A stretch of DNA of 64,000 nt from Escherichia coli (lineage in GTDB: Bacteria; Pseudomonadota; Gammaproteobacteria; Enterobacterales; Enterobacteriaceae). Where the stretch lies: NCBI RefSeq assembly GCF_048403405.1, contig NZ_CP183129.1. One strand, 5' to 3'. Below the pieces are notes generated by a model. It saw only the letters and a program-made list of their open reading frames with translations. It ran no database searches and was not told the origin of the DNA. This document shows, piece after piece, positions 1 through 27,416 of this stretch. Position numbers and translations under genes: made by a program. The first letter of the stretch is position 1. Each line of letters starts with the position of its first letter.

Positions 1-1
1 T

Positions 2-784
2 TTTGCTTGAGTTGGCTAGTTTTCGGATGAAATCAATGTCATTACCTTTATAAAAAACAGCCTTTGTATCTGTAGATACTAGCCAGTTTCGCTCAACTGC
101 TTTCTGTTTATCAAGGCGATAAAGCATGCTGGTTTGTTCAAGGCCTAAATATACATCCCAACTAAGAAATACTTCGGTTTTCTTTTCTCGGCAAGCTATA
201 AAAAGAGTAGGAGTAACCGCTTCTCCAAATGGAGTTCTGATATAATCATCACTTTCTAACGATAAAATTACATTTTTCGAATCATCAATTGGCGATGTAG
301 TAATGGATGTGTGCCATTTTCCTACATCTGTGGCTTTCTCTAATTTTGATTCAGCTTGAGCGATTTTATCCTGTGGGAATAGTTTATCGTAGCAGTTTAG
401 TCTGGCTTCTTTATCATTTTCTGCACGACATTTAGATATCTCAGAAAGATTTGGTTGCTGAGCCTCTGTTGTTACTGGCTTTTCCGTTTTAGATTTTGAG
501 TTTACAGATGGAGTAAATGTTGGAGAAAAGAAACGATCATAACAAGATAAACGTCTATCATCATCTTTCTCATCAGGGCATTGATCTCTGCTTTCGAATT
601 TTTCAGCAACTTTCGTTCGAGTCGGTTGTATTGACTTATCGTAACAAGAAAGTCTGTCTTTATTATTTTCTATTGCTCGGCACTGGAGTACTGCATTGAA
701 GTTCTTATGTTCAGTTGCTGCTTGAACAGGCAGTACACTAATTGATATAAATGATGCACCTATAGAAAAAATTATATTTTTCAT
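2..784 (-). CDS. Secreted protein with three C-x(8-10)-RL-x-CYD repeats; start at 784, C-terminus runs off the window start (partial)
   Basis: Manual minus-strand translation from ATG at 784-782 is open to position 2 (about 261 codons); N-terminal signal-peptide-like MKNIIFSIGASFISISVLPVQA; repeats QCRAIENNKDRLSCYDK / QCPDEKDDDRRLSCYDRF / KCRAENDKEARLNCYDKLF; AT-rich. Absent from ORF track because no stop lies in the window. Confidence 0.6.
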   Translation of the reverse strand, partial: MKNIIFSIGASFISISVLPVQAATEHKNFNAVLQCRAIENNKDRLSCYDKSIQPTRTKVAEKFESRDQCPDEKDDDRRLSCYDRFFSPTFTPSVNSKSKTEKPVTTEAQQPNLSEISKCRAENDKEARLNCYDKLFPQDKIAQAESKLEKATDVGKWHTSITTSPIDDSKNVILSLESDDYIRTPFGEAVTPTLFIACREKKTEVFLSWDVYLGLEQTSMLYRLDKQKAVERNWLVSTDTKAVFYKGNDIDFIRKLANSSK

Positions 785-788
785 TTTA

Positions 789-1121
789 TTATCCCTTTGG
801 TTTAGTAAGAAATACTAAAATTCCGATAATGATATCGCCAATAACCCATAAGCTTCCAATGGTAATTAAACCTAAGCCTGTACCAATAACTGCACCGGCT
901 TTTTCGGCATCGGATGTGGCATTATTTATTATTTCACTAGTGCCTCCTAGTCCAACTAAAAGCGTATAGATCATAAAAATATTAAATAATATAAAAACCC
1001 ACTTAATGATCCGTCCAAAAAATGAACGCTTAAGTTTTTGCAGTTGTTTACCACAAGCAGGGCAATACAATGCTGAATCGCTCACCTCTTTCTGGCATTC
1101 AGGACATTTGATTAATGCCAT
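789..1121 (-). CDS. Small zinc-ribbon (CPxC...CPxC) membrane protein, hypothetical
   Basis: ORF track 110 aa; N-terminal CPECQ...CPACG zinc-ribbon motif followed by two hydrophobic helices; AT-rich; stop 4 nt before the start of the 2..784 gene. Confidence 0.6.
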   Translation of the reverse strand: MALIKCPECQKEVSDSALYCPACGKQLQKLKRSFFGRIIKWVFILFNIFMIYTLLVGLGGTSEIINNATSDAEKAGAVIGTGLGLITIGSLWVIGDIIIGILVFLTKPKG

Positions 1122-1383
1122 GTAATCCGCCTCCTTTGGATTAATACGAGTTGATATTTGTTACAAAACATTTTGATTTTATCAGATTTATTTTTATTGA
1201 TAAGTGTCAATTGATTAGCTGGTATAGAGTGAGGCATATAGAAGGGCTGGTCTGTATCAGTATGTGATGCAAAAATCCCACAGTTTCATGGAATTTTTGC
1301 ATTTAGAGCTGTGAGATAGGGTGCCTTATCGACCTTACCCTGGCAACCGATTGACGGGGGATTACTCCCCCGTCGCGGTTTCC

Positions 1384-1524
1384 TTACTGCTTACACTGTA
1401 AGAACGCCGCAAACTCCGCTCCCCAGAAGCTCATCCGTATTTCACACAGCGAACCGTGCAGCATCCAGATGATGAGGATTACCGTCACGCAGAACGTGAT
1501 GGCCGTAAGCGATTTTTGCGACAT
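1384..1524 (-). CDS. Hok/Gef-family type I toxin (small membrane peptide)
   Basis: Manual translation MSQKSLTAITFCVTVILIIWMLHGSLCEIRMSFWGAEFAAFLQCKQ (46 aa); AAGGAG Shine-Dalgarno upstream; SLCE(I/L) and E-x-AAFLxCK motifs resemble HokA-like proteins (from memory); strong hairpin GACGGGGG-AGTAAT-CCCCCGTC downstream. Below ORF-track size cutoff. Confidence 0.55.
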   Translation of the reverse strand: MSQKSLTAITFCVTVILIIWMLHGSLCEIRMSFWGAEFAAFLQCKQ

Positions 1525-1714
1525 AGCGCTTGCTCCTTTTTCGGGGAGGCGCTAACCTATCACTTGCTTAGGGTAGACGGTTAGGGCCTCGGTTAAACAA
1601 AAGTGTTTTCCGGGGCCTTTCCACATCCGGCCATCGGGTATTCCCTCCGACCATCAGCCGAAAGGCACCCGCGCGTAATCTATCGCTTTTTTGTTACTCC
1701 GGCAATTCTGCCTG

Positions 1715-1975
1715 TTAATTCTGAGGTAAAGGCAAACTCATCTGATTGTTTCCCCTGTGTGAAGCTGGCAGCTCATGCCACGGGATACCTTCTGAAGAGT
1801 GAACGCCGGAGGCGTGTTTTGATGTGAATTTATGGAAGGCTTCCAGTGTTGAGAAGCATACGCCGCATTCCAGATTGTTACACTGGTAATACTTTTGCCG
1901 CACGGTGTTTGAATCATTTTCCGGACGACTGGTGCGGATACGGGCAGATGCGCCACAAAGCGGACAACGGAACAT
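1715..1975 (-). CDS. ogr: Late gene transcriptional activator Ogr (zinc-finger)
   Basis: Starts MFRCPLCGASARIRTSR...YYQCNNLECG, matching the P2 Ogr/phage 186 B pattern; lies immediately downstream of D. Confidence 0.85.
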   Translation of the reverse strand: MFRCPLCGASARIRTSRPENDSNTVRQKYYQCNNLECGVCFSTLEAFHKFTSKHASGVHSSEGIPWHELPASHRGNNQMSLPLPQN

Positions 1976-2017
1976 AGCGACCTCCCTTAACGTGGTGCTG
2001 CCGCTATTCTAAGTTGC

Positions 2018-3127
2018 TCACTCTGTTTCCGCTATCCATTCCGGGATTTTTGCCTCAAGCTCAAGCTGCGTGGTAAAGCCGCTGTTATCAATAGTGTGCT
2101 CGGCTTTTGCAATGATCCAGTCCTGATTATCAATCTCGCTTTTAAATCCTGTTACCGTACCATGCATTTCGGGGTAGAGTTCTGCACGTCCACGCGCCAG
2201 CGTGATGGAGAATGATGCGGCTCCGCGTTGTAGTTGCTGCCACTTTGCCGCCGCTGCGCGTCTTGCTGCCTGTTCGTTCTGATAGGTCTTGCGTAACACA
2301 AACACATTGCCTTCCGCGCCTTCCATATAATCACCTTCACGGCTGCTGCTTTTCTCCTTTTGGGGTTTTGGTGGTTTGCGGCGTTTCACGCTGACTTTTT
2401 TCTTTTCCCCGTAATTAAGATCAAGCCAGTAGGCGCGTACCCCCGTATACGCCTCGCGGTCAGCAATACGGAACTGATGGCGATCGCCGCTGCTGCGTGT
2501 AATGGCGAACGAGGGCAACGGCTGGCCCTGTGCGTTCACGCCACCACCTGGCATGATGAATAACAGATTGCCGCTTTTTACCGTGGTGATTGCGCCCAGC
2601 ATTTCCGCCATGCGCGTAAGGAAGGACATGTCGCTTTCTTCGGTCTGGTCGGCGTGGTCGATTTCGATATCCATCAGCATTTCGCTGATTTGTGGTTTCA
2701 GACCATACCGATGAGCGATGGCGGATACCACACGCTCAACGGTCACATCATGCCAGGACACCTCACGTTTAACGTTAAATTCATCCCGAAAATCTGCGCT
2801 TCTGGCTGAAACAGTCAGCCTGTCCGGCGGTCCTTCGTGAGCGATTTCATCAACAATGTAAGTGCCTTTTTCTGTCAGCGGTTCTCCTTTCCAGCCAATG
2901 AGAACCGTCAGGCGCGCGCCCCGTGGCGGTAGCTGCAACTGACCATCCGCATCATCCAGCGTGATGGTGAGCTGGTCCGCCTCAAATCCCCGGTTGTCGG
3001 TCAGTGACAGGCTCATCAGGCGCTCTGCCACGCCTGACAGCGTTTTACCCTCCGCGAGAATATCAAAATCCGGCATTTTCACGGGGTCTGTGCCCTGACT
3101 GAGCAATTGCATGGTGGTGTCGGTCAT
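2018..3127 (-). CDS. D: Tail protein D (late control gene D)
   Basis: ORF track frame 2018..3259; start trimmed to ATG at 3127 (MTDTTMQLLSQGTDPVKMPDFDILAEG...) preceded by a GGGAGGGAA ribosome-binding site; P2 gpD-like length and sequence. Confidence 0.85.
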   Translation of the reverse strand: MTDTTMQLLSQGTDPVKMPDFDILAEGKTLSGVAERLMSLSLTDNRGFEADQLTITLDDADGQLQLPPRGARLTVLIGWKGEPLTEKGTYIVDEIAHEGPPDRLTVSARSADFRDEFNVKREVSWHDVTVERVVSAIAHRYGLKPQISEMLMDIEIDHADQTEESDMSFLTRMAEMLGAITTVKSGNLLFIMPGGGVNAQGQPLPSFAITRSSGDRHQFRIADREAYTGVRAYWLDLNYGEKKKVSVKRRKPPKPQKEKSSSREGDYMEGAEGNVFVLRKTYQNEQAARRAAAAKWQQLQRGAASFSITLARGRAELYPEMHGTVTGFKSEIDNQDWIIAKAEHTIDNSGFTTQLELEAKIPEWIAETE

Positions 3128-3284
3128 CTGTTCCCTCCCTGTGCGGCATGGTCGCATGTGCGTGCGGAGGGGGTTACTGCTTTTTGTTGTCGCCGGGTCG
3201 GGAGAACGGCGCAGGGGTGAGATTACGCGCGTGGTGGGTGATGATTGTTGCCGAATCATTTAACGGATACAAGGGGCTGAAGCT

Positions 3285-4469
3285 ATGAGTGAAACTCGTT
3301 TTCATGGTGCCCGTGTTACGGAAAATACCGACCTGGTAACAGCGATTAACGATGTTGATTCCAGCGTTATCGGTATCGTGGCAACGGCGGATGATGCGGA
3401 CGCGAAGCTGTTCCCGCTGAATAAGCCCACACTGCTGACCCGCGTCAATGACGTGCTGGGAAAATGCGGGACAACGGGGACGCTTTATCGTGCGCTTAAG
3501 GCCATCGCAGACCAGGTGAGCACAAAGGTGATCGTCGTTCGCGTGGCTGAACACAAAGAAGAAGACGGAAAGACGCAGGATCAACTGGTTATCGGTGGTT
3601 CTGAGGATGACGGCAGCTATACGGGGATGTATGCGCTGCTTGTTGCAGAGCAGGATGAAAGCATCGGATACCGTCCGCGTATTCTGGCCGCGCCGGAGCT
3701 GGACACGGAGGCTGTAACAAAATCCCTGTGCGTGATTGCAGGTAAACTGCGCGCGTTTGTGTATGCCTCATGTCACGGCTGTAACACGATGGCTGAGGCG
3801 ATTACCTACCGCCAGAAATTCAACGAACGTGAGGTGATGCTCTTATGGCCGGACTTCATCGCCTACAACCCGAAAAGTGGCAAAAACGAAACGTTCCCCG
3901 CGCCTGCCTATGCGTGCGGCCTTCGTGCGTACATTGACCATGAGCAGGGCTGGCACAAATCGCTGTCCAACGTTCCGGTTAAAAATGTGCTGGGAATGTC
4001 CAGGCATGTGTTCTGGTCGTTGCAGGCCGAAGACAGCGATGCCAACAGCCTCAACAACAAAGAAATCACGACCATTATTCGTCGCAACGGGTTCCGCTTC
4101 TGGGGCAACCGCACACCGGAAACGAACGCCTACATCTTTGAGGTGTATACCCGAACCGCACAGGTGCTGGCTGATTCAATTGCGGAAGCGCAGTTTGAAA
4201 CCATCGACAGTCCACTGACACCTGCGAACGTGAAGGATGTTATCAGCGCCATCAGGGCAAAACTGGATTCGCTGGTTACTGCCGGGAAACTGATTGGTGT
4301 GGAGTGCTGGTATGACGTGGTGGATAACGGCACCACGAATTTACGTCAGGGACGTGTGCGTATTCGCTACAAATATACGCCTGTTCCCCCGCTGGAAGAC
4401 ATGGAGCTTTACCAGACGTTTACTGATGAATTCTTTGGTCCCGCATTTGCGGTGCTGGGAGGTGCCTGA
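3285..4469 (+). CDS. FI: Tail sheath protein FI
   Basis: 394 aa; GIVATADDADAKLFPLNKP...DGFRFWGNRT...YTPVPPLE motifs as in P2 gpFI. Confidence 0.9.
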   Translation: MSETRFHGARVTENTDLVTAINDVDSSVIGIVATADDADAKLFPLNKPTLLTRVNDVLGKCGTTGTLYRALKAIADQVSTKVIVVRVAEHKEEDGKTQDQLVIGGSEDDGSYTGMYALLVAEQDESIGYRPRILAAPELDTEAVTKSLCVIAGKLRAFVYASCHGCNTMAEAITYRQKFNEREVMLLWPDFIAYNPKSGKNETFPAPAYACGLRAYIDHEQGWHKSLSNVPVKNVLGMSRHVFWSLQAEDSDANSLNNKEITTIIRRNGFRFWGNRTPETNAYIFEVYTRTAQVLADSIAEAQFETIDSPLTPANVKDVISAIRAKLDSLVTAGKLIGVECWYDVVDNGTTNLRQGRVRIRYKYTPVPPLEDMELYQTFTDEFFGPAFAVLGGA

Positions 4470-4981
4470 TGGCTGTACCAAAACATCTTCGCTTTTTTAC
4501 GTTGTTTGTGGATGGTGAAAACGAAGTGGGTAAAGTGACATCCGTCACGCCGCCCAAACTGACGCGCAAAACCGACAGCTATCGTGGTGGTGGCATGATG
4601 GGGGCGGTAAGTATTGATCTCGGTCTGGACGACTCCGCGCTTGATGCGAGTTTTGTCATGGGGGGAGCTGTTCGTGCGCTGTTCCTTAAATATGGCGGCA
4701 CGATTGACGGCACGCTGCTGCGTTTTGCGGGTGAATACTACACCGATGCAGAAAGCGATCTGTATGAAATCGAGATGCGCGGGCGTGTGACGGAAATTGA
4801 TATGGGGGAAGCCAAACAGGGCGAAGCCACATCACACACTTACGCTGTCAAAAACACCTACTACAAGCTGAGCGTTAACGATCGCCCGCTGTGGGAAATC
4901 GACCTGTTGAACCACATCTACCGGAAGGACGGCAAGGACATTGTGCCTGACCGTATCCGTTCCGCGCTTGGGCTTGGCTGA
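4469..4981 (+). CDS. FII: Tail tube protein FII
   Basis: 170 aa, directly follows FI; P2 gpFII-like. Confidence 0.9.
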   Translation: MAVPKHLRFFTLFVDGENEVGKVTSVTPPKLTRKTDSYRGGGMMGAVSIDLGLDDSALDASFVMGGAVRALFLKYGGTIDGTLLRFAGEYYTDAESDLYEIEMRGRVTEIDMGEAKQGEATSHTYAVKNTYYKLSVNDRPLWEIDLLNHIYRKDGKDIVPDRIRSALGLG

Positions 4982-5036
4982 TAAGTAATATGCAGGCGGC
5001 GCAGTGCGTCGCCTCTGACTGAAAAGGAGACAACTG

Positions 5037-5411
5037 ATGAAAGACATCGATACTGAAACCCGGAATAACACCGTGGCGGATGATGTGACGGCAGGTGAGG
5101 ATATGGCTGTCGAACGTGGCGTAAAACTGACCCGACCAATTGAGCGTGGTGGCGAAAAAATCACGTATGTGGAGATCACCGGGGCTATTGAGCAGGCTGG
5201 ATCCCTGCGTGGTCTGTCGCTGTCTGATGTGCTGAATCTGAAAGCGGATACCATGTTTACGCTGTTGCCTCGCGTGACCTCGCCACGACTGGATGAAGTG
5301 ATGATTAAAAAAATGTCGTCACGCGATTTTATTCAGTTGTGCGCTGTGGCTGTAAATTTTATGAGCGAGCCAGACTCTGGCGCGAAGAGCGTGCAGGAGA
5401 CGGCAGCGTAA
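5037..5411 (+). CDS. E: Tail assembly chaperone E (zero-frame product)
   Basis: ORF between tube and tape-measure genes, the position of P2 gene E. Confidence 0.75.
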   Translation: MKDIDTETRNNTVADDVTAGEDMAVERGVKLTRPIERGGEKITYVEITGAIEQAGSLRGLSLSDVLNLKADTMFTLLPRVTSPRLDEVMIKKMSSRDFIQLCAVAVNFMSEPDSGAKSVQETAA

Positions 5412-5575
5412 TCACCCTGGTGTGCTTTGAGCACATCGAAGATCTGGTGGCGGATATTGCCGCCATTTTTAACTGGTCGCCCGCCGAAATCTTCATGATG
5501 ACGCCCGGCGAAGTGGTTAGCTGGCGCGAGCGGGCGGCACTTCGCAGCGGGAATGCAGATAATGAAGACTCTTGA
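5037..5575 (+). CDS. E+E' fusion by programmed -1 ribosomal frameshift
   Basis: The -1 frame is open from 5309 to 5575 and overlaps the E frame; an A7 run (5307-5313) in ATT-AAA-AAA-ATG is a plausible slippery site; 3' end overlaps the T start, as in P2 E/E' and lambda G/GT. Confidence 0.55.
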
Positions 5576-8369
5576 TATCCGGGTCGCTTTCAGCGCCGTT
5601 GACAGGCTGACCCGGCCTGCCGAAAACGCCCGCCGCCTGATGGGGCAGTTTGGTGACTCCATCCAGCGAACGCAGGGGGCGATCAAAAATCTCGAGCGTC
5701 AGGCGCGTTCATTTGAGCGCGCCCGTGACGCTGTCAGTAAAGCGGATGCTGGCATCGTGAAAGCACGACGCCAGCTTAACGCCCTTAATCAGTTACAACG
5801 CACGGGTACAGTGCTCAGCGAAAAACAACAAAAGCTGATGCAGCAGTTAAGCACCCGGCTTGAACGCCTGAATGAATCGCGCACACGGGAAATTCAGAAA
5901 ATGCGGGAGCTTGGCGGAGAGCTGAAACGCCACGGCATTTCCCTGACAGGCAGCGATAACACCATCCAGCAGGCCATCAGACGCACCGAACAGTACAACA
6001 ACCAGCTTGAACGCGAACGGCAGGCGCTTGCGCGTGTAACGCGGGCGCGTGAGCGGTATTCGCGCGCGCAGGAAACAGCGGGAAAACTGAAAACAGGTGG
6101 TGCGCTGGCAATTGGTGCGGCAGCGGCGGGCGGCTATGCTGCCGGGCGTTTTTTGCAGCCTGCGATCGGGTTCGGCAAAGAGATGTCCCGCGTTCAGGCA
6201 CTGACGCGAATCGACCAGAACAGCCCGCAGTTTAAGGCGCTGCGTGAGCAGGCGTTAAAACTTGGCTCTGAAACGCAGTTCACCGCAGGCGATGCCGCCA
6301 GTGGACAGGCATTTCTTGCAATGGCTGGCTTCACTCCGCAGGCCATTCAGGCTGCGCTTCCCGGCGTGCTGAGCATGGCAACGGCTGGCGGTATGGATCT
6401 CGGCGAGACGGCAGATATTGGCTCAAATATCCTGACGCAGTTCGGCCTTTCTGCTGACCAGATGGACCGGGTCGGTGACACACTCACCGCAGCGTTTACC
6501 CGTACCAACACTGACCTTCGCGCACTGGGCGAAACCATGAAATATGCAGGTCCGGTGGCGGGTAAGCTGGGAATATCGCTGGAGCAGGCCGCAGCGATGG
6601 CTGGCGTGCTGGCGAATATGGGCATCAGAGGGAGTGATGCCGGGACGGCAATGCGTGCCAGCCTGGCTCGTCTGGCATCACCGCCAAAGGCGGCGGCAGA
6701 AGCTCTGAAAGAGCTGGGCGTGTCCGTCTCGGATGCCGGGGGCAAAATGCGCCCGATGGAGGATGTGCTGGCCGACCTTTATAAAGCCACCCGTAAATAC
6801 GGGGAAGTTGACCGGGTATCGTTCTTTAAGGACATTGCCGGAGAAGAGGCTTTCACATCGTTTATGGCGCTCGTTGATGCAGCGGGTGACGGTTCCTTAC
6901 CCAAACTGAGAAAAGAACTTGAAGGCGCGCGCGGTGAGGCTGAACGCACAGCAAAGGTTATGGCCAACAACCTTGACGGCGATCTGAAATCACTCGGCAG
7001 TGCATGGGAAGGGTTGCGCATCCGCATTGCAGATCTGATTGACGGTCCGCTGCGTTCTGTCACGCAGTGGCTCACGCGGGTGGTCTCAAAAGTGACGGCA
7101 CTGGCGCAGGCCCATCCGGCACTGACGCGCCAGTTACTGATAGCGGGAGGTGCACTGCTGGCGACAACAGCAACGGTTGGTTCGTTGTCTCTGGTTATTG
7201 GGGTGCTTCACGGGAAGCTGGCTACGTTACGTCTCGGTTTTTCTCTCCTGACCGGATCAATGAATGCTGTCAGGGGCCTGCCAGCACTATGGGGAATGGT
7301 GACGGGTTCCGTTTCTTTACTGGGAGGCGCTATCGGGGCGCTGATCAGTCCGGTTGGTCTTATCGTGGCTGCGCTTGCCGGAGCTGCCGTTCTTATCTGG
7401 AAATACTGGGATCCCATCAGGGCATTTTTTGCCGGGGTGTTCAGCGGGATTATGGAAAGGCTGACCCCGTTGCGCGAAACCTTTGAACGGTTTGGTCCTG
7501 TTTTTGACGCAATCGGAAGCGGGATCAGCCAGGTGTTTAACTGGTTTAAATCGCTGCTGTCACCGATGGAGTCCAGCAAGGAAACGCTGGATAAATGTAC
7601 CAGTGCTGGCGAGATATTCGGTAACGTTCTTGGCGGTGCGTTACAGCTTGTTCTGACACCTGCAAAAATGCTACTGGATACGCTGGCGTGGATACTTGAA
7701 AAACTTGGCGTCCTTCCGGATGAAGCGGAAAAGGCGCGCAAGAAAATCGAAGACGCACAGCGTGCGGCCATTCTTCAGGACAAGGTTGCCTTGCTTCAGG
7801 GGGACCTTGCGAAAATCAATCCGCCGAAGCCTGTGGAAAATGGCAATGGCACCGGAGGTGATAAACCCAAAGACAACAAACCGCTCACAGACAGCAATAC
7901 CGGGACGCTACGCAGACTCAGCAAAATTGCTGATAACACAGGTAAGCTGGTTGATGAGACGAAAAAACGCATTGGCCCTGGCGATATTGTCTTTAAGAAC
8001 CTGCCCCGCGCACTTGCTGTTCGTGGGGAGTGGCAGGAGCGGAAGATTGCGCAGGTCAGTAAGCCTGCCCCCGCAATTAATATCACACCCGTAGTCCCGG
8101 CTCCGCTGCCTCCGGCGCTGGTCCCTGTTGTTGCGGCCAGCTCCCGCCCGGTGGCGGAGGCCATACGATCGCCAGTGGCATCAGTTCCTGCAGCTTCCCG
8201 TAATCGGGAGCCTGCTGTCTCCAGATTTGGCGGTGAAATTCATGTTCATCTGCATAACGTTGTTACGCAGAATCCCCGCGAACTGGCGAAACTGGTCGGT
8301 GAAATGGTCAGGGCAGAGATGGAACGGCGCGCCCGTGCCGGACGTGGCAGTTTTTACGATAAAGATTGA
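5553..8369 (+). CDS. T: Tail tape measure protein T
   Basis: 938 aa; coiled-coil-rich N-terminal part, Gly/Ala-rich hydrophobic middle; position after E/E'. Alternative start ATG at 5562. Confidence 0.85.
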   Translation: MQIMKTLDIRVAFSAVDRLTRPAENARRLMGQFGDSIQRTQGAIKNLERQARSFERARDAVSKADAGIVKARRQLNALNQLQRTGTVLSEKQQKLMQQLSTRLERLNESRTREIQKMRELGGELKRHGISLTGSDNTIQQAIRRTEQYNNQLERERQALARVTRARERYSRAQETAGKLKTGGALAIGAAAAGGYAAGRFLQPAIGFGKEMSRVQALTRIDQNSPQFKALREQALKLGSETQFTAGDAASGQAFLAMAGFTPQAIQAALPGVLSMATAGGMDLGETADIGSNILTQFGLSADQMDRVGDTLTAAFTRTNTDLRALGETMKYAGPVAGKLGISLEQAAAMAGVLANMGIRGSDAGTAMRASLARLASPPKAAAEALKELGVSVSDAGGKMRPMEDVLADLYKATRKYGEVDRVSFFKDIAGEEAFTSFMALVDAAGDGSLPKLRKELEGARGEAERTAKVMANNLDGDLKSLGSAWEGLRIRIADLIDGPLRSVTQWLTRVVSKVTALAQAHPALTRQLLIAGGALLATTATVGSLSLVIGVLHGKLATLRLGFSLLTGSMNAVRGLPALWGMVTGSVSLLGGAIGALISPVGLIVAALAGAAVLIWKYWDPIRAFFAGVFSGIMERLTPLRETFERFGPVFDAIGSGISQVFNWFKSLLSPMESSKETLDKCTSAGEIFGNVLGGALQLVLTPAKMLLDTLAWILEKLGVLPDEAEKARKKIEDAQRAAILQDKVALLQGDLAKINPPKPVENGNGTGGDKPKDNKPLTDSNTGTLRRLSKIADNTGKLVDETKKRIGPGDIVFKNLPRALAVRGEWQERKIAQVSKPAPAINITPVVPAPLPPALVPVVAASSRPVAEAIRSPVASVPAASRNREPAVSRFGGEIHVHLHNVVTQNPRELAKLVGEMVRAEMERRARAGRGSFYDKD

Positions 8370-8375
8370 GGAGTC

Positions 8376-8870
8376 ATGGTCATGATGATGATCTACGGCA
8401 TGTTTGTTTTTGAGCTGCGCACACTGCCGCATCAGCAGTTACAGCAAAACAAAAGCTGGCGGCATGTGAAAAATGAACGCGTTAACCGTTCAGCAAGCTG
8501 GCAGTATATAGGTGCAGGTGATGATCGCATTGTGCTTTCCGGCGTGCTTTATCCTGAAATTACAGGTGGCGAAGTGTCGCTTTCGTTGCTGACCACGCAG
8601 GCATATACAGGACGCCCCTGGCCTCTGATTGATGGTGTCGGGCAGATTTACGGCATGTATGTGCTGACTGAAACGAATACGACCCGTTCCGAGTTTGATC
8701 GCTACGGTAAGGCGAAAAAGATAGAATTTTCACTGACCCTTGAACGCTGTGATGAGGATTTGCGGGAGCGCCTGCAATCCTCATCATTCAGCGATATGCT
8801 GTCCGGCTTCAAAGATAAGGTGACATCATCTCTTAACAGCGCGGCCAGTTCAGTTAAAGGGCTGTTCTGA
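8376..8870 (+). CDS. U: Tail protein U
   Basis: 164 aa; MMMIYGMFVFELRT... resembles P2 gpU. Confidence 0.85.
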   Translation: MVMMMIYGMFVFELRTLPHQQLQQNKSWRHVKNERVNRSASWQYIGAGDDRIVLSGVLYPEITGGEVSLSLLTTQAYTGRPWPLIDGVGQIYGMYVLTETNTTRSEFDRYGKAKKIEFSLTLERCDEDLRERLQSSSFSDMLSGFKDKVTSSLNSAASSVKGLF

Positions 8871-8883
8871 TTTAACACAAAAA

Positions 8884-8912
8884 CCGCTAATGGTCAGATT
8901 AGCGGTTATTTT
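8884..8912. terminator. Bidirectional intrinsic terminator between convergent U and invertase genes
   Basis: Hairpin CCGCTAA-tggtcaga-TTAGCGG flanked by T-rich tracts on both strands. Confidence 0.5.
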
Positions 8913-9493
8913 GTTTCCTGACTCTTCTCTATTGTTCCGATTGATTCTCCTGCGGGGTGGTAACGATAAATCGTCGATATACCAATGCCGTAAATTATTG
9001 CCAGTTGTTTTCTGTCGTGCCCGTTTTTGATCAGCCTTGCTATTTGCTCATGCTGTTCTTTTGTCAGCTTCGGTCGACGTCCGCCTGTGCGCCCCCGTGC
9101 GCGTGCTGCCGCCAGTCCGGCCAGTGTACGTTCAACAATTAATTCACGTTCCATTTCAGCCAGGGCACCCATCACGTGGAAGAAAAAACGCCCCATTGGA
9201 GAAGATGTATCTATGCTGTCGGTCAGACTGCGAAAATTAATTCCTCGCTCCCGTAGTTCCCCGACGAGAGAAATCAGATGTTTCATGCTTCGCCCGAGGC
9301 GATCCAGTTTCCAGACAACCAGCGTGTCACCTTTTTGAAGGCGCTTTAAAGCGCGTTTTAATCCCGGTCGGTCTGTCTTTGTCCCGCTTAATTTATCTTC
9401 AAATATTTGTTCACATCCTGCACAAACAAGAGCGTTTCGTTGCAGGTCTGTATTCTGGTCATTTGTTGATACCCTTACATAGCCAATCAGCAC
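8906..9493 (-). CDS. Site-specific DNA invertase, Gin/Pin/Cin/Hin serine recombinase family
   Basis: (V)LIGYVRVSTNDQNTDLQRNALVCAGCEQIFEDKLSGTKTDRPGLKRALKRL... is near-identical in pattern to Mu Gin / e14 Pin; start trimmed to GTG at 9493. Confidence 0.9.
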   Translation of the reverse strand: MLIGYVRVSTNDQNTDLQRNALVCAGCEQIFEDKLSGTKTDRPGLKRALKRLQKGDTLVVWKLDRLGRSMKHLISLVGELRERGINFRSLTDSIDTSSPMGRFFFHVMGALAEMERELIVERTLAGLAAARARGRTGGRRPKLTKEQHEQIARLIKNGHDRKQLAIIYGIGISTIYRYHPAGESIGTIEKSQETK

Positions 9494-9547
9494 GCTGAAT
9501 CTCCCGTCCAAAAGCGCAAATCATGCCATGCAGGCCGGAAACGGCCA

Positions 9548-9580
9548 TTATCTAAAACCTCGGTTTACAGGAAACGGTAA
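9548..9580. other. gix-like inversion crossover site (right)
   Basis: TTATCTAAAACC-TC-GGTTTACAGGAA matches the gix/cix-type 26-bp site; an inverted copy lies at 12614-12646. Confidence 0.8.
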
Positions 9581-10581
9581 ACAAGGCTGGTAACGCCGTC
9601 CAAAAGACAGGCGATATCTTGTCCGGTGGGCTTACTTTTGAAAACGACTCAATCCTTGCCTGGATTCGGAATACTGACTGGGCAAAGATTGGTTTTAAAA
9701 ATGATGCCGACAGCGATACTGATTCATACATGTGGTTTGAAACAGGCGACAACGGCAATGAATATTTCAAATGGAGAAGCAAACAAAGCACCACAACAAA
9801 AGACCTGATGAATCTTAAATGGGATGCTTTGTCTGTTCTTGTTAAAGCCCTTTTCAGCAGTGAAGTAAAAATATCGACAGTCAATGCACTGAGGATATTT
9901 AATTCATCTTTTGGTGCTATTTTTCGCCGTTCTGAAGAATGCCTGCATATCATCCCGACACGAGAGAATGAGGGAGAAAATGGTGATATAGGGCCACTAC
10001 GCCCCTTTACGCTTAATCTCAGAACTGGTCGGATAAGCATGGGGCATGGTCTTGATGTTACAGGGGATATATTTGCAAACCGTTTTGCAATTAACAGTAG
10101 TACCGGCATGTGGATTCATATGCGTGACCAGAATGTTATTTTGGGACGCAATGCGGTATCCACCGATGGTGCACAGGCATTACTTCGTCAGGACCATGCT
10201 GATCGCAAATTTATGATTGGTGGGCTGGGAAATAAGCAATTTGGCATCTACATGATTAATAACTCAAGGACAGCTAATGGCACCGATGGTCAGGCGTACA
10301 TGGATAATAACGGGAACTGGCTTTGCGGTTCGCAAGTTATTCCCGGCAACTATGGCAATTTTGATTCCAGATATGTGAAAGATGTTCGACTTGGTTCACA
10401 GCAATATTATGGAGTGAACAACTGGCAAACATGGAATTTCCAGTGCCCGTCAGGTCATGTATTGTCTGGTATTAATGTTCAGGATACAGGGTCCAACTCT
10501 GCCGATAATATAGCGGGCGTTTATTACAGACCCGTTCAAAAGTATATAAATGGCACCTGGTATAATATAGCGAGCGTTTAA
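9559..10581 (+). CDS. Alternative tail-fiber C-terminal variable cassette (promoterless, silent in this orientation)
   Basis: Frame opens inside the crossover site and encodes LGLQETVN, the same peptide encoded at the other site within H; C-terminus [12 protein letters not shown] parallels the H C-terminus [12 protein letters not shown]. Confidence 0.75.
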
Positions 10582-10582
10582 T

Positions 10583-11110
10583 ATGATGCACTTAAAGAAC
10601 ATAAAAGCGGGTAATGCTAAAACACTGGAACAGTATGAGTTAACAAAGAAGCACGGAGTCATCTGGCTTTACTCTGAGGACGAAAAAAACTGGTATGAGG
10701 AAGTGAAAAACTTTCAGCCAGACACCATAAAGATTGTTTACGATGCAAATAATATTATTGTCGCCATCACTAAAGATGCCTCCACGCTTAACCCTGAAGG
10801 TTTTAGCGTCGTTGAGGTTCCAGATATTACAGCCAACCGCCGCGCTGATGATTCAGGAAAGTGGATGTTTAAGGATGGAGCTGTAGTTAAACGGATTTAT
10901 ACGGCAGACGAACAGCAACAACAGGCCGAATCACAAAAGGCCGCATTGCTTTCCGAAGCTGAATCAGTCATCCAGCCGCTGGAACGCGCTGTCAGGCTGA
11001 ATATGGCAACAGACGAGGAACGCACACGACTGGAAGCATGGGAACGCTACAGTGTTCTGGTCAGCCGTGTGGATACGGCAAATCCTGAATGGCCACAAAA
11101 GCCTGAATAA
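10583..11110 (+). CDS. Alternative tail fiber assembly protein (silent orientation)
   Basis: 175 aa; N-terminus [23 protein letters not shown] nearly identical to the active copy at 11139..11672, C-terminal part divergent. Confidence 0.8.
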
Positions 11111-11115
11111 AAATT

Positions 11116-11137
11116 AAGGCCCGCTATCGGGCCTTGT
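11116..11137. terminator. Bidirectional hairpin between the two convergent tail fiber assembly genes
   Basis: AAGGCCCG-ctat-CGGGCCTT perfect stem at the centre of the invertible segment. Confidence 0.5.
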
Positions 11138-11138
11138 C

Positions 11139-11672
11139 TCATTCAGGTTGTTCGGGAAATGTTACTGGCAGGCTGGAGGTGTCTGTAGATTCGACTTTCT
11201 GCGCATAGAGCATCCACTCGGTTAATTTTGGTTTATTCTCGTCGGAAATGATGCCCAGCCGTAGCTGTGAGTCCCATAGCTGGGTTTTATCCCTGACAAG
11301 TTGCAACAGGCTTTGCTTTTCATTTTCCGCCTGCTGCCTCTGCTCTTCCTCGGTATAAGTTCGCTTTACCACTACGCCATCTTTGAACATCCATTTACCC
11401 GAAATGTCAGCACGGCGATTTGCTGTAATATCAGGTAATTCAACGACGCTTGCGCCTTCCGGATTAATTGCTGAAACATCCTTTTCAATACAAATAATAA
11501 CGCCGTTATGGTCATAGACCATTTTTAAAGTGTCTGGCTGGAAATTCTTTTGTTCCTCATACCAGTTTTTTCCATCCTCTGAATAAAGCCATTTGATGTT
11601 AAATTGTTTCGTTAGCTGGTATTGCTCTTTTGTTTTAGGGTTGCCAGCAGTAATGTTTTTTAAGTGCATCAT
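11139..11672 (-). CDS. G: Tail fiber assembly protein (P2 G-like), active orientation
   Basis: 177 aa, immediately downstream of H. Confidence 0.85.
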
Positions 11673-11674
11673 CG

Positions 11675-13777
11675 TTAAATACTCCCCGCGTTATACCACG
11701 TCCCATTAATGCAATACTGAATTGGCCTTGCCTGAGTTGTATCAATTAATTCATCACGGTTTCCGTTAACTGAACCCGTAACGACATAACCTGACCTGTC
11801 AGACCAGCCGGGACCATTCCATGTCTGAACAGATGACAGACCGCCAAGGCGAATACCTGTAATAAACCTTGAGTTACATTCTGCCTGCGTGTATGCACCA
11901 ACATCTCCCGCTGAGGGTTTGCGGGTCGTGGTGTAAAACTCTGACCAGTCAGCTTCAAAGCCATAACCATCACGCGCTGAACGATAAAAAATGCCGCCGT
12001 TCCTGTAATTCACGCGGAACTGTACAGCAGGGCAACTCCCCGCATTCATATTGAAATGAAGAATTAACGTTGATGCGCCGGTGATTCTGGCGCAATAAAC
12101 TCCGCTGTTCCAGTTCCAGCCAACAGCTTTATCATTTCCGACAGTGCTTCCTGTTTGCCCTAAAGCAAATGCAGGTTGTTGATTTTTCGTGTTGTAGTCT
12201 CGTCGCCAGCCAGGAGCGTAAGCATCACCATGATTGATATAAGTGAATTGAGCGTTAGTAATTCCGCCACCGCTGGACGTGCTCGGCGTGGTAACGCGTA
12301 TGGTCATTGCGCCGCGAGTGCCAATAACTTCCACCACAGCACCTGCAAGACAAATATTTCCGCAACCTGTATCTGTAATGACCTTATTATTTGCATAAGC
12401 CCATGAGCCTTTGCACATCCAGTAAGGATGGTTAAATGCTCCCTGACTCTCCAGCCACGAAATAAATTGCGCGGTTGTCCAGACCTGACTATCGCCACCA
12501 ATATTCAGCCATGCGCTATATGCGCGGCAGGCACCAATATTTTTGGTGAAGGTATCTTTTCCTGGAATATCTGCGCCGTTCTGGTTTTTCTGTAATGCGC
12601 CAGAAGCCTGATTTACCGTTTCCTGTAAACCGAGGTATTCGATAACGGCAGCAACGGTCGATTTCGCAAGAATATCCCGCCCGACTTTTGTCAGGGTTGC
12701 CAGGCTGGCGACATCATTCCCCGTAAAATACGGAAACCTGTCTGCCGCAGTAGCAAGCCCGGCCAGCGCCGTCAGGGTGGCATCTTTCGGTTGCTTACCC
12801 GCAAGCGCTTTAGTCATGGTGGTCGCAAAATTCGGGTCGTTTCCCAGCGCCGCCGCTAACTCGTTCAACGTATTCAGTGCGTCAGGCGACGAGTCTACAA
12901 GTGCGGCAATCGCGGCCATCACATAAGCCGTGCTTGCGATCTGAGTATTATTAGTCCCTTTTGGCGCAGTTGGCGTTGTTGGCGTTCCGGTCAGTGCAGG
13001 ACTATTTAAGGGCGCTTTCTTGTTCGTTTCATCCATTACCGCCTTAACCGCTTTTGGCGTCGCAGCCAGCGTTTCAGATGTGCTGTTGGTGGCGCTACTG
13101 AGCTGAACTATCCCTTTTCGCGCAGTGGTAGCGTCCTGTGCGGTGTATTTGCCATTAGCCAGGTCATATGCCGCCTTAACAGCCTTTGGCGTTGCCGCAA
13201 GCGTTTCAGACGTGCTGTTAGTGGCGCTGCTAAGTTGAACAAAGCCTTTTGCGGTCAGCGAGGCGTCCGGGTGACGTCGTGAGTGTTCATGCTCTTTCAG
13301 TTTGTCATCCACGTAATCCACTGTGGCCATCACCATGGTGTTATCCACGGTAAGCGCCACGGTGGCAGTGCTGGATACGGTCAGAATGGTGCGAAATGTT
13401 TGTGCACGTCCTGACCCTTCGGCAACGGCTGGCTTGTAACTTTCGGCAGTATTGCCTACTGCGATTAAATCGCCGTGCTCATCAAACACACCAATTTCCC
13501 GGATCCAGAATCCGCCCGTTTCTGGAGGAATAACCAGCTCCGCAATAATGCGGTTCTGATGTGTTGCGTCCAGTATGACGCGATTAACAGTGTGTCGCCA
13601 CACCTCATGCACCAGACGGGTCTGCTTACTGTCTGGTGTGGGCAACGTGCCGCCACCGTCGCCCACGGCCATATGAGTCAGGCGGACAGGCTTACCATCT
13701 GGCGCGGCTGCCTGAGCTAATTTTTTTGCACCCGTATCGGTGATAACGGTTTTAAATTTTCGTGTTGTGGTACTCAT
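11675..13777 (-). CDS. H: Tail fiber protein H (constant N-terminal part 13777-12634, variable C-terminal part inside the invertible segment)
   Basis: 700 aa; conserved P2 H-like N-terminus, internal tandem repeat [22 protein letters not shown] x2; crossover site within the coding sequence. Confidence 0.9.
12614..12646. other. gix-like inversion crossover site (left), inside H
   Basis: TTACCGTTTCCTGTAAACCGAGGTATTCGATAA is the reverse complement of the 9548-9580 site, with 31 of 33 positions matching. Confidence 0.8.
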
Positions 13778-15202: not shown

Positions 15203-15553
15203 TTACTCCCTCAGCGTGATGGTTAACTCAATATTCTGCATGGTCTGCATGACAGTGCCCGACAGCGTCACCCCGGCGCGGCCTCCCGCTTTCCAGACAA
15301 CGTCGATGGCATCCAGGGCAATGCGGGGTTCCCATCGTGTCAGCGCAATCACGGCAGCACTCATGCATTGCAGACGCGTGGTGTTATTCATGGGTTCGTC
15401 AATCAAATCAGGCACAAGGCTGCCATATTCCCGTCGCATAACCCGGCTGGCCAGCGGGGTGGTCAGGATGTCCCTGACTGACTGTTTCAGGTGCTCCATA
15501 TCGTTCAGGTTTCCCGTTCCGTCCGGGTTCATTCCTGTGTAGCGGGTTGTCAC
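15203..15553 (-). CDS. W: Baseplate protein W (gp25-like)
   Basis: 116 aa, position between V and J. Confidence 0.85.
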   Translation of the reverse strand: MTTRYTGMNPDGTGNLNDMEHLKQSVRDILTTPLASRVMRREYGSLVPDLIDEPMNNTTRLQCMSAAVIALTRWEPRIALDAIDVVWKAGGRAGVTLSGTVMQTMQNIELTITLRE

Positions 15554-16131
15554 TGCGGGCCTCCTGTCGAATCGCTGCCACCTTTAACGCCACCGTGCTT
15601 ATGCGTATGCACTGTGATGCCGTTTGAGGTGAAGTTGCCGCCGCTGTGCGTGATATTGCCGCTCATCTTTCCCCCTTTTGTGACGTCAAGCGTCGCTGTT
15701 CTCAGAAGGTTTGTGCATTCCACGACGGGCGTATCCAGTGTCACGCTGACGGATGCCTGCAGGGTGGCTGTTTTCATGCCGCTGGCGCTCAGTGCGCCTG
15801 CGTCTGCGTCGTAGCGGAACACCGCGCCATCCGGCGCGCTGACCACGATTTCTTTCAGGCTTTTGCCGGGGGCCGGACTGGCATCACTCCACAGGCTGCC
15901 AATTATCATGGCGGTTTCCGGGTTGCCGCCAATGCAGGCAATTACCACCTGTTCGCCTGGTGATGGCGGCAGCCACACATTGAAGGCTCCCGCGCGCGTG
16001 GTGTTCCAGCGCAACCAGCCTGTTTCCAGTTCGCCGCTGCGAACGCGCACGCGCCAGGACTTCTCATCAACTTCAGAGATGATCCCGGTGCGGATGATAT
16101 TACTCAGCAGTCGCATGAGTTCTGCGCTCAC
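15550..16131 (-). CDS. V: Baseplate spike protein V
   Basis: 193 aa; overlapping stop/start with W. Confidence 0.85.
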   Translation of the reverse strand: MSAELMRLLSNIIRTGIISEVDEKSWRVRVRSGELETGWLRWNTTRAGAFNVWLPPSPGEQVVIACIGGNPETAMIIGSLWSDASPAPGKSLKEIVVSAPDGAVFRYDADAGALSASGMKTATLQASVSVTLDTPVVECTNLLRTATLDVTKGGKMSGNITHSGGNFTSNGITVHTHKHGGVKGGSDSTGGPQ

Positions 16132-16772
16132 CGTACAGCCTCCGCAATCCGGCCCAGCACCGTGTTATAAATCAGGCGCTCATCTGCCTGGCTGATACCC
16201 AGCAGCTCACGTACCGGGTAATCGGTGAAAATGCCCGGCGCAACCTGATCGCGCTCACCGAACTGATGAACGCGGGCAATACGTGCGGCCACGCCGCTGT
16301 AACCCACCGTCACACCGGAAGCATCTGCACGGGCTTTCAGGTAGCGGGCGGTGCGCAGTTTTACGAACATGGGGACGCGCTTTGTGCTGTCCTGGTTGAT
16401 GCGCCGGGTGCGTATTTCCAGAAAACGGTCGATGTCATCCCGGTAAAACGTGCGGATATTGTTTTTATCCTCATCCCACCCGGTAATGGTTCGCCCGTAT
16501 TTCCCCGTGTCGTGATGCCAGTTTTTCAGCGTGCGTGCTTCGTTATTCCAGATAAAGCGAATGCGTTCCTGTATCCGGGTTACGCGGCGTCTGCGTGGTG
16601 TCCACGCGGTCCCGTCCGGCGCTTTCTGTGACCGGATACGCGCCTGCTGGGCGCGGCGTAAATCCTGTGCCAGCTTTCTGGCGATGTTATTGATGGCCTG
16701 CTGATTCAGGCTGTCGCGGATGGCCTCAAAGGTTTCATCCACGCGTGTGAATGCCTTATCCATCGCTTTCAC
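16128..16772 (-). CDS. S: Tail completion / virion morphogenesis protein S
   Basis: Position between R and V; longer than P2 gpS, so start uncertain. Confidence 0.7.
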   Translation of the reverse strand: MKAMDKAFTRVDETFEAIRDSLNQQAINNIARKLAQDLRRAQQARIRSQKAPDGTAWTPRRRRVTRIQERIRFIWNNEARTLKNWHHDTGKYGRTITGWDEDKNNIRTFYRDDIDRFLEIRTRRINQDSTKRVPMFVKLRTARYLKARADASGVTVGYSGVAARIARVHQFGERDQVAPGIFTDYPVRELLGISQADERLIYNTVLGRIAEAVR

Positions 16773-21197: not shown

Positions 21198-22067
21198 TCA
21201 GAAGTCAGCCAGTTGATCGGAGGCTGCGCCTGTTGCGGTGAACCGGTTCTGCGGATCGCCGTCCTGCGTGCGCAGTTTTTCCTTCAGTGCTGTCAGCTCT
21301 GTGGTCAGTAAAGTGATTTTCTGGCTGTCCTGCTGATGGCGGGTTTCCAGCGCATTAAAACGGTCGATAATGTCGGCCTGTGACGTTGCGACACCTTCCA
21401 CCGCTTCCTGAATACGGGAGAAACTGGCGTCATCCGCTTTGCGGCCACGGCCAATAATCCCCATAACGCGGTTAAACCACTGGGTGCCTTCTTCCTGACG
21501 TTGTTCGGTGAGTTCGATAAGTTCTGACTCCATAGCGGCGGTAAACATCGCCACGTCTCCCTGCTGACAGTTGAATGTCATCAGTTGCATACGTTGTTGT
21601 GCCGCAAAGGCCAGACGTTCCGTGCCCAGGCTGGCGGGGGTGTCGGTCATTGCCAGCCCGCGCAGGTAAGGGCCTCCCGTGATGGTTGACTGTGGTTCCA
21701 GCTCAATACTGGAGTAAATTTTTTTACCATCGTTAAGCAGGGACATCATGCGAGCGGTCGGCTCAATTTCGGCATACAGTGCCGTGCGACCTGCCAGCGG
21801 GCCATCGGTTATGTCTTCGGTGCTCAACCCCACAACATCGCCCATAGCGGAAAACTCGCTACCGGGGAGTGGTGACAGGATGTGCTCAATATTCACACGT
21901 GCACCATAAACGGACGGGTTATAACTGGTGGCGGCAGCTTTCAGCATGTCGCCGTTGATTTCGCGCCCGTCTGCCGTTACACCGGAGACAGCCACGCGAA
22001 ACTTTTTGCGGGATGTCTTTTTTTCATTAGCCATAGTTTTTGCCCCTCTGACTGGTTCTTCAGTCAT
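21198..22067 (-). CDS. O: Capsid scaffolding protein O
   Basis: 289 aa, first gene of the O operon, divergent from P. Confidence 0.85.
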   Translation of the reverse strand: MTEEPVRGAKTMANEKKTSRKKFRVAVSGVTADGREINGDMLKAAATSYNPSVYGARVNIEHILSPLPGSEFSAMGDVVGLSTEDITDGPLAGRTALYAEIEPTARMMSLLNDGKKIYSSIELEPQSTITGGPYLRGLAMTDTPASLGTERLAFAAQQRMQLMTFNCQQGDVAMFTAAMESELIELTEQRQEEGTQWFNRVMGIIGRGRKADDASFSRIQEAVEGVATSQADIIDRFNALETRHQQDSQKITLLTTELTALKEKLRTQDGDPQNRFTATGAASDQLADF

Positions 22068-22188
22068 GATGGCAAAGCGTAACAGGCTGATACAAAGGGC
22101 TTTTGTTGTAAGAAAACAGTCAGAACAGGGGGTTAAGGAGAACGGTTTCGCGCGCGGGTAATCTTCCTGTAATTACTCAGGGGGAGCA

Positions 22189-25593: not shown

Positions 25594-25620
25594 GGCGGGG
25601 ATTTGCTCCCCGCCTTTTTT
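25594..25620 (+). terminator. Intrinsic terminator / candidate attenuator hairpin
   Basis: GGCGGGGA-tttgc-TCCCCGCC stem followed by T6, 15 nt upstream of the next gene start. Confidence 0.6.
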
Positions 25621-25634
25621 ATGGATGAAATAGG

Positions 25635-26132
25635 ATGAACCCAATAACACTACAAATCATCAGCAATGCTATTGTTCTGCTTGGCGTTTTGGTTGCCATT
25701 GGAACCATTATCTACAATGTGCGTACCGCAAAAAAAACTCAAACGGCCAACTTTCTTTTTGAGAGTCGGCAAGATATGCAATATATAGAGTCATTGCATA
25801 CCCTGAAACAAGTGCATCGTTCAGGCAAATCATTTCGTTCTTATGTTTTTCCTTGTGATGGTTGCATAATAACAGATGAAGAAATGGCCGAGCGTCGAAA
25901 ATTTCAATATATTTTAAATTTTTACGAGCGAGTTGCTGTAAGTATTCGTGAAGGTATTTATGATGAAAAAATGATAAAAAGAACATCTTACACAACAGTT
26001 GTAGAGACATATGATATTGCCGAGCCATTAATTAAAGCAATCAGAGAAAGCATTAATTCGGATACTACATATCAAGAATTCGAATGGTTAGTAAGAAGAT
26101 GGAAAGCTAATCCTTTACGGAAAAACAAATAA
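25635..26132 (+). CDS. Hypothetical protein, single N-terminal transmembrane helix plus ~130-aa soluble domain (unassigned family)
   Basis: 165-aa ORF in strongly AT-rich DNA, where long open frames are unlikely by chance; N-terminal hydrophobic helix ITLQIISNAIVLLGVLVAIGTIIY. Confidence 0.75.
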   Translation: MNPITLQIISNAIVLLGVLVAIGTIIYNVRTAKKTQTANFLFESRQDMQYIESLHTLKQVHRSGKSFRSYVFPCDGCIITDEEMAERRKFQYILNFYERVAVSIREGIYDEKMIKRTSYTTVVETYDIAEPLIKAIRESINSDTTYQEFEWLVRRWKANPLRKNK

Positions 26133-26171
26133 TGTTTTACCCTTTAATTTACAAGTAACACAGGGGGAAGT

Positions 26172-27014: not shown

Positions 27015-27023
27015 TTTGAAACA

Positions 27024-27046
27024 TTGGCACCCTGTTAGCAAGGGTG
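27024..27046. terminator. Hairpin between the convergent cassette and parR-like gene
   Basis: GGCACCCT-gttagca-AGGGTGCC perfect stem. Confidence 0.4.
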
Positions 27047-27097
27047 CCAGAATGATGTGTTGGTCTGTATTTTATTAGTTCACATACAATTATCAGA

Positions 27098-27412: not shown

Positions 27413-27416
27413 TGGT

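Follow-up and report, generated by a model that had tools for sequence, protein, structure and literature searches.

Inverted FI-U tail block of P88-like Escherichia coli prophages: a clade-wide gene order with a predicted bidirectional late promoter between D and FI

In phage P2 the F operon is transcribed from one promoter (pF) along a single strand in the order FI-FII-E-E'-T-U-D, with D as its last gene and ogr following, while the divergent late genes P and O are served by pP and pO from one activator dyad situated midway between them (hexamers 44-49 nt to each side, mapped starts about 55 nt from the dyad centre). The P2-like phages Fels-2 and Escherichia phage Cartapus keep FI-U-D in the P2 orientation, unlike the locus described here, and carry a tail-fibre inversion cassette in the same variable slot as this locus, flanked by the F block and the gene for tail-fibre assembly. 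The closest relatives are Escherichia phage P88, P884B11 and Citrobacter phage phiSM, of which P88 and phiSM can be induced or form plaques (PMC6456863); they resemble our locus in all gene strands, in a 157-bp D/FI gap and in the dyad that this gap contains, and differ from it in the variable tail-fibre part and in the cargo at the prophage ends.

The window (the whole 64-kb stretch of DNA that was analysed) holds a P88-like E. coli prophage (Xuanwuvirus, Peduoviridae), integrated between flk and pdxB. Its region 1700..9568 aligns as a single piece with P88-type phages at 95.8-97.9% nucleotide identity (megablast; about 10 kb queried), and a P2-type gene set (V W J I H, FI FII E T U D, ogr, O N M L, P Q, A, cox, C and int) was recognised by PHROG matches, tblastn against P2 and the PGAP annotation of a near-identical prophage. 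A scan of the 64-kb window for tRNA genes returned none. The genes and other features that bear on the gene order are the following:

1715..1975, minus strand: ogr homologue, lying downstream of D and encoding a late-gene activator with a C4 zinc finger
2018..3127, minus strand: D, tail/baseplate hub protein (PHROG 52 tail protein, E=1e-166)
3128..3284, 157 bp: D/FI divergent control region, proposed as a late promoter that depends on Ogr and works in both directions (pD and pF)
3285..4469, plus strand: FI, tail sheath (PHROG 23, E=4e-125)
4469..4981, plus strand: FII, tail tube (PHROG 55; PGAP name 'phage major tail tube protein')
5037..5411, plus strand: E, tail assembly chaperone (PHROG 103; E/E' region 5037..5575)
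5420..5575, plus strand, -1 frame: E', tail assembly chaperone (PGAP 'GpE family' ORF at the equivalent position)
5553..8369, plus strand: T, tape measure (PHROG 28, E=3e-215)
8376..8870, plus strand: U, tail protein, final gene of the flipped block (PHROG 76, E=9e-75)
8882..8907: bidirectional intrinsic terminator in the U/invertase gap (hairpin with 10-bp stem, T runs on both strands)
8906..9511, minus strand: Gin/Cin-type DNA invertase (PHROG 125, E=1e-96), part of the tail-fibre cassette and outside the flipped block
9544..12649: invertible tail-fibre segment carrying tfa genes and alternative C-termini of H, with gix-type repeats near 9547..9575 and 12618..12646 as its boundaries
11675..13777, minus strand: H; the I, J, W and V genes are likewise on the minus strand

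The ORFs and PHROG matches confirm the layout originally described, in which the minus strand carries D and ogr and the plus strand FI-FII-E/E'-T-U, and in which (by the ORF coordinates) D and FI diverge across 157 bp, whereas U converges on the invertase gene at a two-way terminator; the FI-U block is hence opposite to both D and V-H. Placed beside P2, these are the same F-operon genes (32-48% identical), with ogr after D in both, yet here FI-U is flipped, U ends at a terminator and D would have a divergent promoter of its own. The longest D ORF extends to 3259, although homology begins only at residue 43-45; we place the start at 3127, where the equivalent start is annotated in P88 and which is preceded by GGGAGGGA; the product shares 48% identity with P2 gpD and 97-99% with the D proteins of P88 and phiSM. 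The ogr product matches Pfam Ogr_Delta (PF04606, E=8e-14) and shares 42% identity with P2 Ogr across 53 aa, with a cysteine spacing of CX2CX24CX4C (CX2CX22CX4C in P2) and an NCBIfam Ogr equivalog score (44.5 bits) that falls under the cutoff of 116 bits; in identical DNA of E. coli CRE1540 the gene is named 'ogr/Delta-like zinc finger' by PGAP.

The segment ogr-D-FI...U-invertase forms a single collinear megablast piece in P88, phiSM and P884B11 (96-98% identity), and the annotated maps of P88 and phiSM have strands identical to those of the window. The same order recurs, at protein identities of only about 50-70%, in representatives of three further genera, namely SEN5 of Senquatrovirus, Kp4871-3 of Reginaelenavirus and Kp4847-1 of Reipivirus, and also in 80 IMG/VR loci; FI is opposite to D in 86 of 86 loci (loci with D at least 62% identical). 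Within the species, 1354 of 5426 complete E. coli genomes (about a quarter) carry the D/FI junction intact (query 2700..3700), and 1356 of the 1381 records with any match cover at least 80% of the query. Since P2, Fels-2, phiCTX, Cartapus and Mannheimia PHL101 are mutually collinear, the inversion appears to be a derived and old clade trait, the ancestral order being read from this handful of outgroups and not from a rooted tree. Taken together, these genome comparisons show a fixed, old and clade-wide order, one that is evidently compatible with viable phage. Within the library searched, a discussion of the inversion or of a D/FI promoter was found neither in the papers on P88, phiSM and SEN4/5 nor in surveys of P2-like phages.

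This distribution bears directly on how the arrangement could have come about. That the block was flipped by misassembly, or by a recent event in this strain, would have in its favour only the departure from P2 order, and we consider it practically dismissed by the identical junction in the 1354 independently assembled genomes and by its recurrence in genomes of isolated phages and in the three further genera. The original prediction had offered this option beside that of a lineage with a rearranged tail module, and had itself named the sharing of the order by related prophages as the observation that would speak against it; the lineage option has stood (P88, phiSM, three more genera, 80 IMG/VR loci and a quarter of E. 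coli genomes), while the recent inversion or misassembly, any role of the adjacent invertase and the supposed lack of a dyad (see below) have not. A programmed switch, in which the Gin-type invertase flips FI-U, is suggested by the invertase gene abutting one block end, yet its probability is likewise negligible. Such a switch needs gix-type crossover sites, which are present at the tail-fibre segment 9544..12649 (bounded by a 62-nt inverted repeat with core AA(A/T)ACCTCGGTTTACAGGAAACGGTA, and matching the invertible segments of Mu, P1, P7, D108 and SfMu at 90-93% identity) and absent from the FI-U block: a search for inverted repeats flanking the block found none, and the best gix-like sites at its ends have 13-14 mismatches in 26 positions to the phage's own gix core, a resemblance at background level, in keeping with the earlier remark that the breakpoints are not gix-like. 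Moreover, the close relatives show a single orientation (86/86) and not both, and inverted relatives often have no invertase, as in SEN5 and in CRE1540, where a serine acetyltransferase occupies the place of the invertase cassette; the U/invertase junction is found in only 620 genomes, as compared to the 1354 with the D/FI junction. Conversely, in Fels-2 and Cartapus the invertase adjoins FI and the P2 order is kept nonetheless, and therefore the invertase is unrelated to the flip; it inverts only the tail-fibre segment 9544..12649. The order might also have been acquired by tail-module exchange with another phage and not by inversion in situ, given that P2-like phages are mosaic and that tail-operon rearrangements have been reported in Smp131 (PMC3931495). 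We regard this as quite unlikely, as identity to P2 is alike inside the block (FI 45, FII 43 and U 46%) and outside it (D 48, V 46 and J 54%), and the FI-side promoter retains the geometry of P2 pF.

The elements by which D and the flipped block may be transcribed late in infection lie in the D/FI gap and are compared below with a second site of the same prophage:

3148..3153, minus strand: predicted pD -10 hexamer GACCAT, predicted start near 3141
3184..3207, plus strand: activator-type dyad TTGTTGT-N12-AGAAC (core TGT-N12-AGA at 3188..3205, centre 3196.5)
3240..3245, plus strand: predicted pF -10 hexamer GATGAT, predicted start near 3252
22103..22126, plus strand: other activator dyad TTGTTGT-N12-AGAAC, in the O/P divergent late promoter region

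A strict search of the gap for TGT-N12-ACA gave no match, and allowing one mismatch revealed the AGA site, so that the statement that the FI/D region has no Ogr-type dyad was mistaken (TGT-N12-AGA at 3188..3205); the P2 pF and pP/pO sites (TGT-N12-CCA) are likewise one base off TGT-N12-ACA. The longer pattern TTGTTGT-N12-AGAAC has only two matches in the 64 kb (0.29 expected by chance), one in the D/FI gap and one in the O/P gap, the two being identical in all 12 specified bases. Of 76 unique related D/FI regions, 74 contain a single TGT-N12-A[CG]A placed 73-79 nt upstream of FI, a conservation count that is not made of independent cases since these relatives share ancestry; the half-sites carry 2.0 bits and the variable spacer about 0.3 bits. 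In four of four genomes the D/FI and O/P sites have the same variant of the right half-site (AGA at both sites in the window and in Kp4847-1, ACA at both in SEN5 and Kp4871-3), a co-variation that rests on these four genomes and on the clade-level pattern. A second near-match, TGT-N11-GCA at 3140..3156, was rejected because it falls within the leader of D and other genera do not conserve it.

On the FI side, GAnnAT is conserved at +44..+49 from the dyad centre among 23 representatives, and the distance from activator site to -10 equals that of P2 pF. At the mirror position (-44..-49) the D-side hexamer has its A2 and T6 invariant (2.0 bits) in 23 diverged representatives, a feature that the upstream side of P2 pF does not have. 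In P2 pO and pP the hexamers stand at the same distance as in the D/FI gap and the mapped starts lie 7 nt beyond them, and at the O/P site of the window TAATCT occupies +44..+49, with CATCAT one base off the mirror position. The arrangement of one dyad between two divergent late genes is thus like that of P2 pP/pO, except that in the window it lies between D and FI (with AGA as its right half-site) in place of P and O, and that its starts are predictions. The D/FI gap has what is typical of these late promoters, a partial dyad about 55 nt upstream of the predicted start and a -10-like hexamer at the right distance with no good -35, and the phage encodes an Ogr/Delta activator.

On the other hand, the dyad could serve pF alone, D being transcribed from a separate promoter that is independent of Ogr or uses another factor. 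The D-side hexamer is indeed weak (GACCAT shares only 3 of 6 bases with TATAAT), D would have a short leader of about 14 nt, and a conserved CG-alternating run (CGCGCGCG) intervenes between the dyad and the D-side hexamer. We grant this reading a minor, though appreciable, chance. The conserved hexamer at the exact mirror distance argues against it, as does the P2 pP/pO precedent of one site for two divergent promoters (PMC3931495); furthermore, a generic scan of the gap detected no sigma-70 consensus promoter (-35/-10 pair) on the D strand, and in the O/P region the CG run likewise stands before the hexamer of the P side. The best overall explanation, which we hold to be likely, is that the flip is old and lineage-wide and that a single dyad acts for both pF and pD. 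The need for an independent late promoter for D, as originally proposed, finds support in the lineage-wide flip.

We consider it somewhat probable that the one Ogr-type dyad of the D/FI gap drives pF together with a lineage-specific pD, that the inversion was tolerated by this means, and that two bidirectional sites run the late programme. In such a scheme, which is read from motif geometry and conservation, the flip would have set the upstream side of pF against the start of D, so that the dyad at 3188..3205 would now serve two divergent late promoters. Transcription from pF would start near 3252, read FI to U and stop at the two-way terminator, while that from the new pD, starting near 3141, would cover D followed by ogr; read-through into ogr would preserve the positive feedback that in P2 comes from pF read-through. 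All late genes would come under the O/P and D/FI sites, since S overlaps V and there is no third site, and pV would have been lost in the clade. The old inversion would then have been tolerated because D landed beside an activator site that is able to act both ways.

The gene order of P2 is not universal in Peduoviridae, which calls for caution: a locus that departs from it should not on that ground be marked as misassembled or recently rearranged. Moreover, the model of a shared dyad offers a concrete and testable account of how an essential gene, D, may keep its late control once cut off from its operon, and the exact start sites that it predicts may be of use in engineering P88-type phages or tailocin-like particles.

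A P2-type Escherichia coli prophage occupies the left 36.5 kb of the window (int 35405..36424; pdxB starting at 36583), and in E. coli CRE1540, which is 100% identical to positions 2700..3700, the same element lies between flk and pdxB. The gene map of the original prediction was reproduced by ORF listing and PHROG searches: FI to U lie on the plus strand, D and ogr on the minus strand, D and FI diverge across 3128..3284 (the 157-bp D/FI gap), and U converges on the invertase gene at a two-way terminator (hairpin 8882..8907, T runs on both strands). As the P2 record reads V-W-J-I-H-G ... FI-FII-E-T-U-D-ogr on a single strand, the FI-U block is inverted relative to P2.

Genes of the tail region (ORF listing and PHROG searches)
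1715..1975, minus strand: ogr (86-aa frame)
2018..3127, minus strand: D
3285..4469, plus strand: FI
4469..4981, plus strand: FII
5037..5411, plus strand: E
5420..5575, plus strand: E' (-1 frame)
5553..8369, plus strand: T
8376..8870, plus strand: U
8906..9511, minus strand: invertase
11139..11672, minus strand: tfa
11675..13777, minus strand: H
minus strand: I-J-W-V

The matches to Pfam Ogr_Delta (E=8e-14) and to P2 Ogr (42% identity) belong to the 86-aa product, and an overlapping 72-aa GTG frame was rejected as ogr. The longest D and O ORFs extend into promoter regions (to 3259 over 3128..3259 and to 22067 over 22035..22067, both minus strand); judged by homology and by other annotations, translation truly begins at 3127 and 22034. 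The phiSM record (OR565851) wrongly gives the name 'ogr' to D and 'late control gene D' to the sheath gene, an ogr CDS is missing from the P88 RefSeq record (NC_026014), and in CRE1540 PGAP calls D truncated (801 nt) despite identical DNA. Cargo of low GC (35%) occupies 1..1700, between the prophage end and ogr (a TagO-like gene cut at the window start, a zinc-ribbon protein at 789..1121 and a hok/gef toxin gene at ~1384..1524, named after CRE1540 and phiSM annotation). In the region 25600..28400, the portal gene Q is followed by a low-GC cargo slot that encodes a hypothetical protein (26172..27014) preceded by one with a DUF4760 match (25635..26132); ParM-like plasmid segregation genes (~27098..28376) come next, still inside the prophage.

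The suspicion of a recent inversion or misassembly did not hold, as related phages show the same order. A 10-kb query (1700..11700) matched P88, P884B11 and Citrobacter phiSM at 96-98% identity in one unbroken piece (spanning ogr, D and FI to U, and reaching into the invertase gene), and in the annotation of P88 and phiSM the genes lie on the same strands as in the window. Since P88 is an induced phage and phiSM is released spontaneously, forms plaques and lysogenises (PMC6456863), the flipped order is functional. Searched for among 5426 complete E. coli genomes, the D/FI junction (2700..3700) was recovered intact from 1354, and the U/invertase junction from 620. Furthermore, tblastn with the window proteins recovered the same flip in SEN5 (Senquatrovirus, Salmonella), Kp4871-3 (Reginaelenavirus, Klebsiella) and Kp4847-1 (Reipivirus), whose tail proteins are only ~45-70% identical to those of the window, and all 86 loci with a D at least 62% identical (80 of them IMG/VR contigs) carry it. 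Because the order is common to relatives across genera, and P2, Fels-2, Pseudomonas phiCTX, Escherichia phage Cartapus and Mannheimia PHL101 are collinear, we regard the flip as a derived and old character of one Peduoviridae clade; in Burkholderia KS5, U adjoins D on the same strand (PMC3091744). The element is a typical Xuanwuvirus member, and the flipped block can already be seen in annotated public records and in ICTV-recognised genera; text discussing it was not found in the searchable literature.

With regard to origin, the level of identity to P2 within the block (45% for FI, 43% for FII, 46% for U) resembles that of genes beyond it (48% for D, 46% for V, 54% for J), which fits an in-situ inversion with putative breakpoints just upstream of the activator dyad of the FI promoter (pF) and between U and D; acquisition of the flipped order through module exchange is the less probable alternative. 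The invertase is a bystander to the flip: inverted repeats flanking the FI-U block were not found, the flip occurs without an invertase in the CRE1540 prophage and SEN5, and Fels-2 and Cartapus keep the P2 order although a Gin-type invertase directly precedes FI. The breakpoints were rightly predicted not to be gix-like, the 26-nt gix core showing 13-14 mismatches at the block ends, the mode of random 200-nt regions and thus background only. The phage's gix-type sites lie in a 62-nt repeat (9544..9605 and 12588..12649) bounding the tail-fibre segment. The invertase cassette and its invertible segment (9544..12649) share 90-93% identity with the equivalents in Mu, D108, P1, P7 and SfMu, which indicates that a host-range cassette was exchanged recently between unrelated phage families. 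P2 has a variable cargo slot between G and FI (PMC3573123), whereas in the window lineage the slot, with the invertase cassette, sits between tfa and the U end.

The D/FI gap had been reported to lack an Ogr-type TGT-N12-ACA dyad; the strict consensus is indeed absent, but with one mismatch allowed TGT-N12-AGA is present at 3188..3205, and the annotated pF and pP/pO activator sites of P2 (TGT-N12-CCA) are likewise one base off consensus. The extended motif TTGTTGT-N12-AGAAC (both strands, at most 1 mismatch) has exactly 2 matches in the whole 64 kb, against 0.29 expected by chance:

3184..3207: D/FI gap
22103..22126: O/P gap, the second junction at which late genes diverge

Of 76 unique D/FI regions of relatives, 74 contain a single TGT-N12-A[C/G]A, whose end lies 73-79 nt upstream of FI. 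In an ungapped, dyad-anchored alignment of 23 representatives (<90% identical) the half-sites reach 2.0 bits (spacer ~0.3), and -10-like hexamers stand at mirror positions, GAnnAT on the FI strand at +44..+49 (GATGAT, 3240..3245, in the window) and aAncAT on the D strand at -44..-49 (A2 and T6 invariant; GACCAT, 3153..3148). An alternating-CG run (CGCGCGCG) separates dyad from hexamer (~3154..3170 on the D side, 3225..3234 on the FI side, ~22147..22158 on the P side); its conservation between genera is strong towards D in the D/FI gap and towards P in the O/P gap.

The same architecture characterizes the O/P regions of relatives. In the P2 record one activator site serves the divergent pP and pO, whose mapped starts (3016 and 3127) each lie 55.5 nt from the dyad centre, 7 nt beyond hexamers at the same +/-44..49, whereas upstream of P2 pF such a hexamer is lacking; PP and PO have likewise been described as sharing one dyad that is read both ways (PMC3931495). 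The right half-site variant agrees between D/FI and O/P in 4 of 4 paired genomes (AGA in the window and Kp4847-1, ACA in SEN5 and Kp4871-3). Among the window Ogr (1715..1975) and its homologues in related loci, those with ACA dyads have CP(I/V)C and ...VEK(L/M)V, and those with AGA dyads CP(F/L/Y)C and ...VER(E/K/R)V or FHKF; this tracking may represent specificity co-evolution or mere shared ancestry. Within the prophage, TTGT-N12-A[CG]A with a correctly placed hexamer occurs only at the D/FI and O/P sites. No activator-type dyad was found before V, and S (16128..16772) overlaps V (15550..16131); the window lineage therefore appears, unlike P2, to be without pV, and V-W-J-I-H-tfa would be read from pO.

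On the basis of the mirror hexamers, the P2 pP/pO geometry, the likeness to O/P, the presence of only two such sites and the apparent loss of pV, we propose that the single dyad in the D/FI gap drives both pF (predicted start ~3252) and a lineage-specific D promoter, pD (predicted start ~3141, with a leader of ~14 nt carrying GGGAGGGA). Transcription continuing from pD into ogr would keep the feedback that in P2 is given by pF read-through. The flipped block is real but ordinary, and this proposed model, in which a known type of promoter is used in a variant way, is the sole addition made here.
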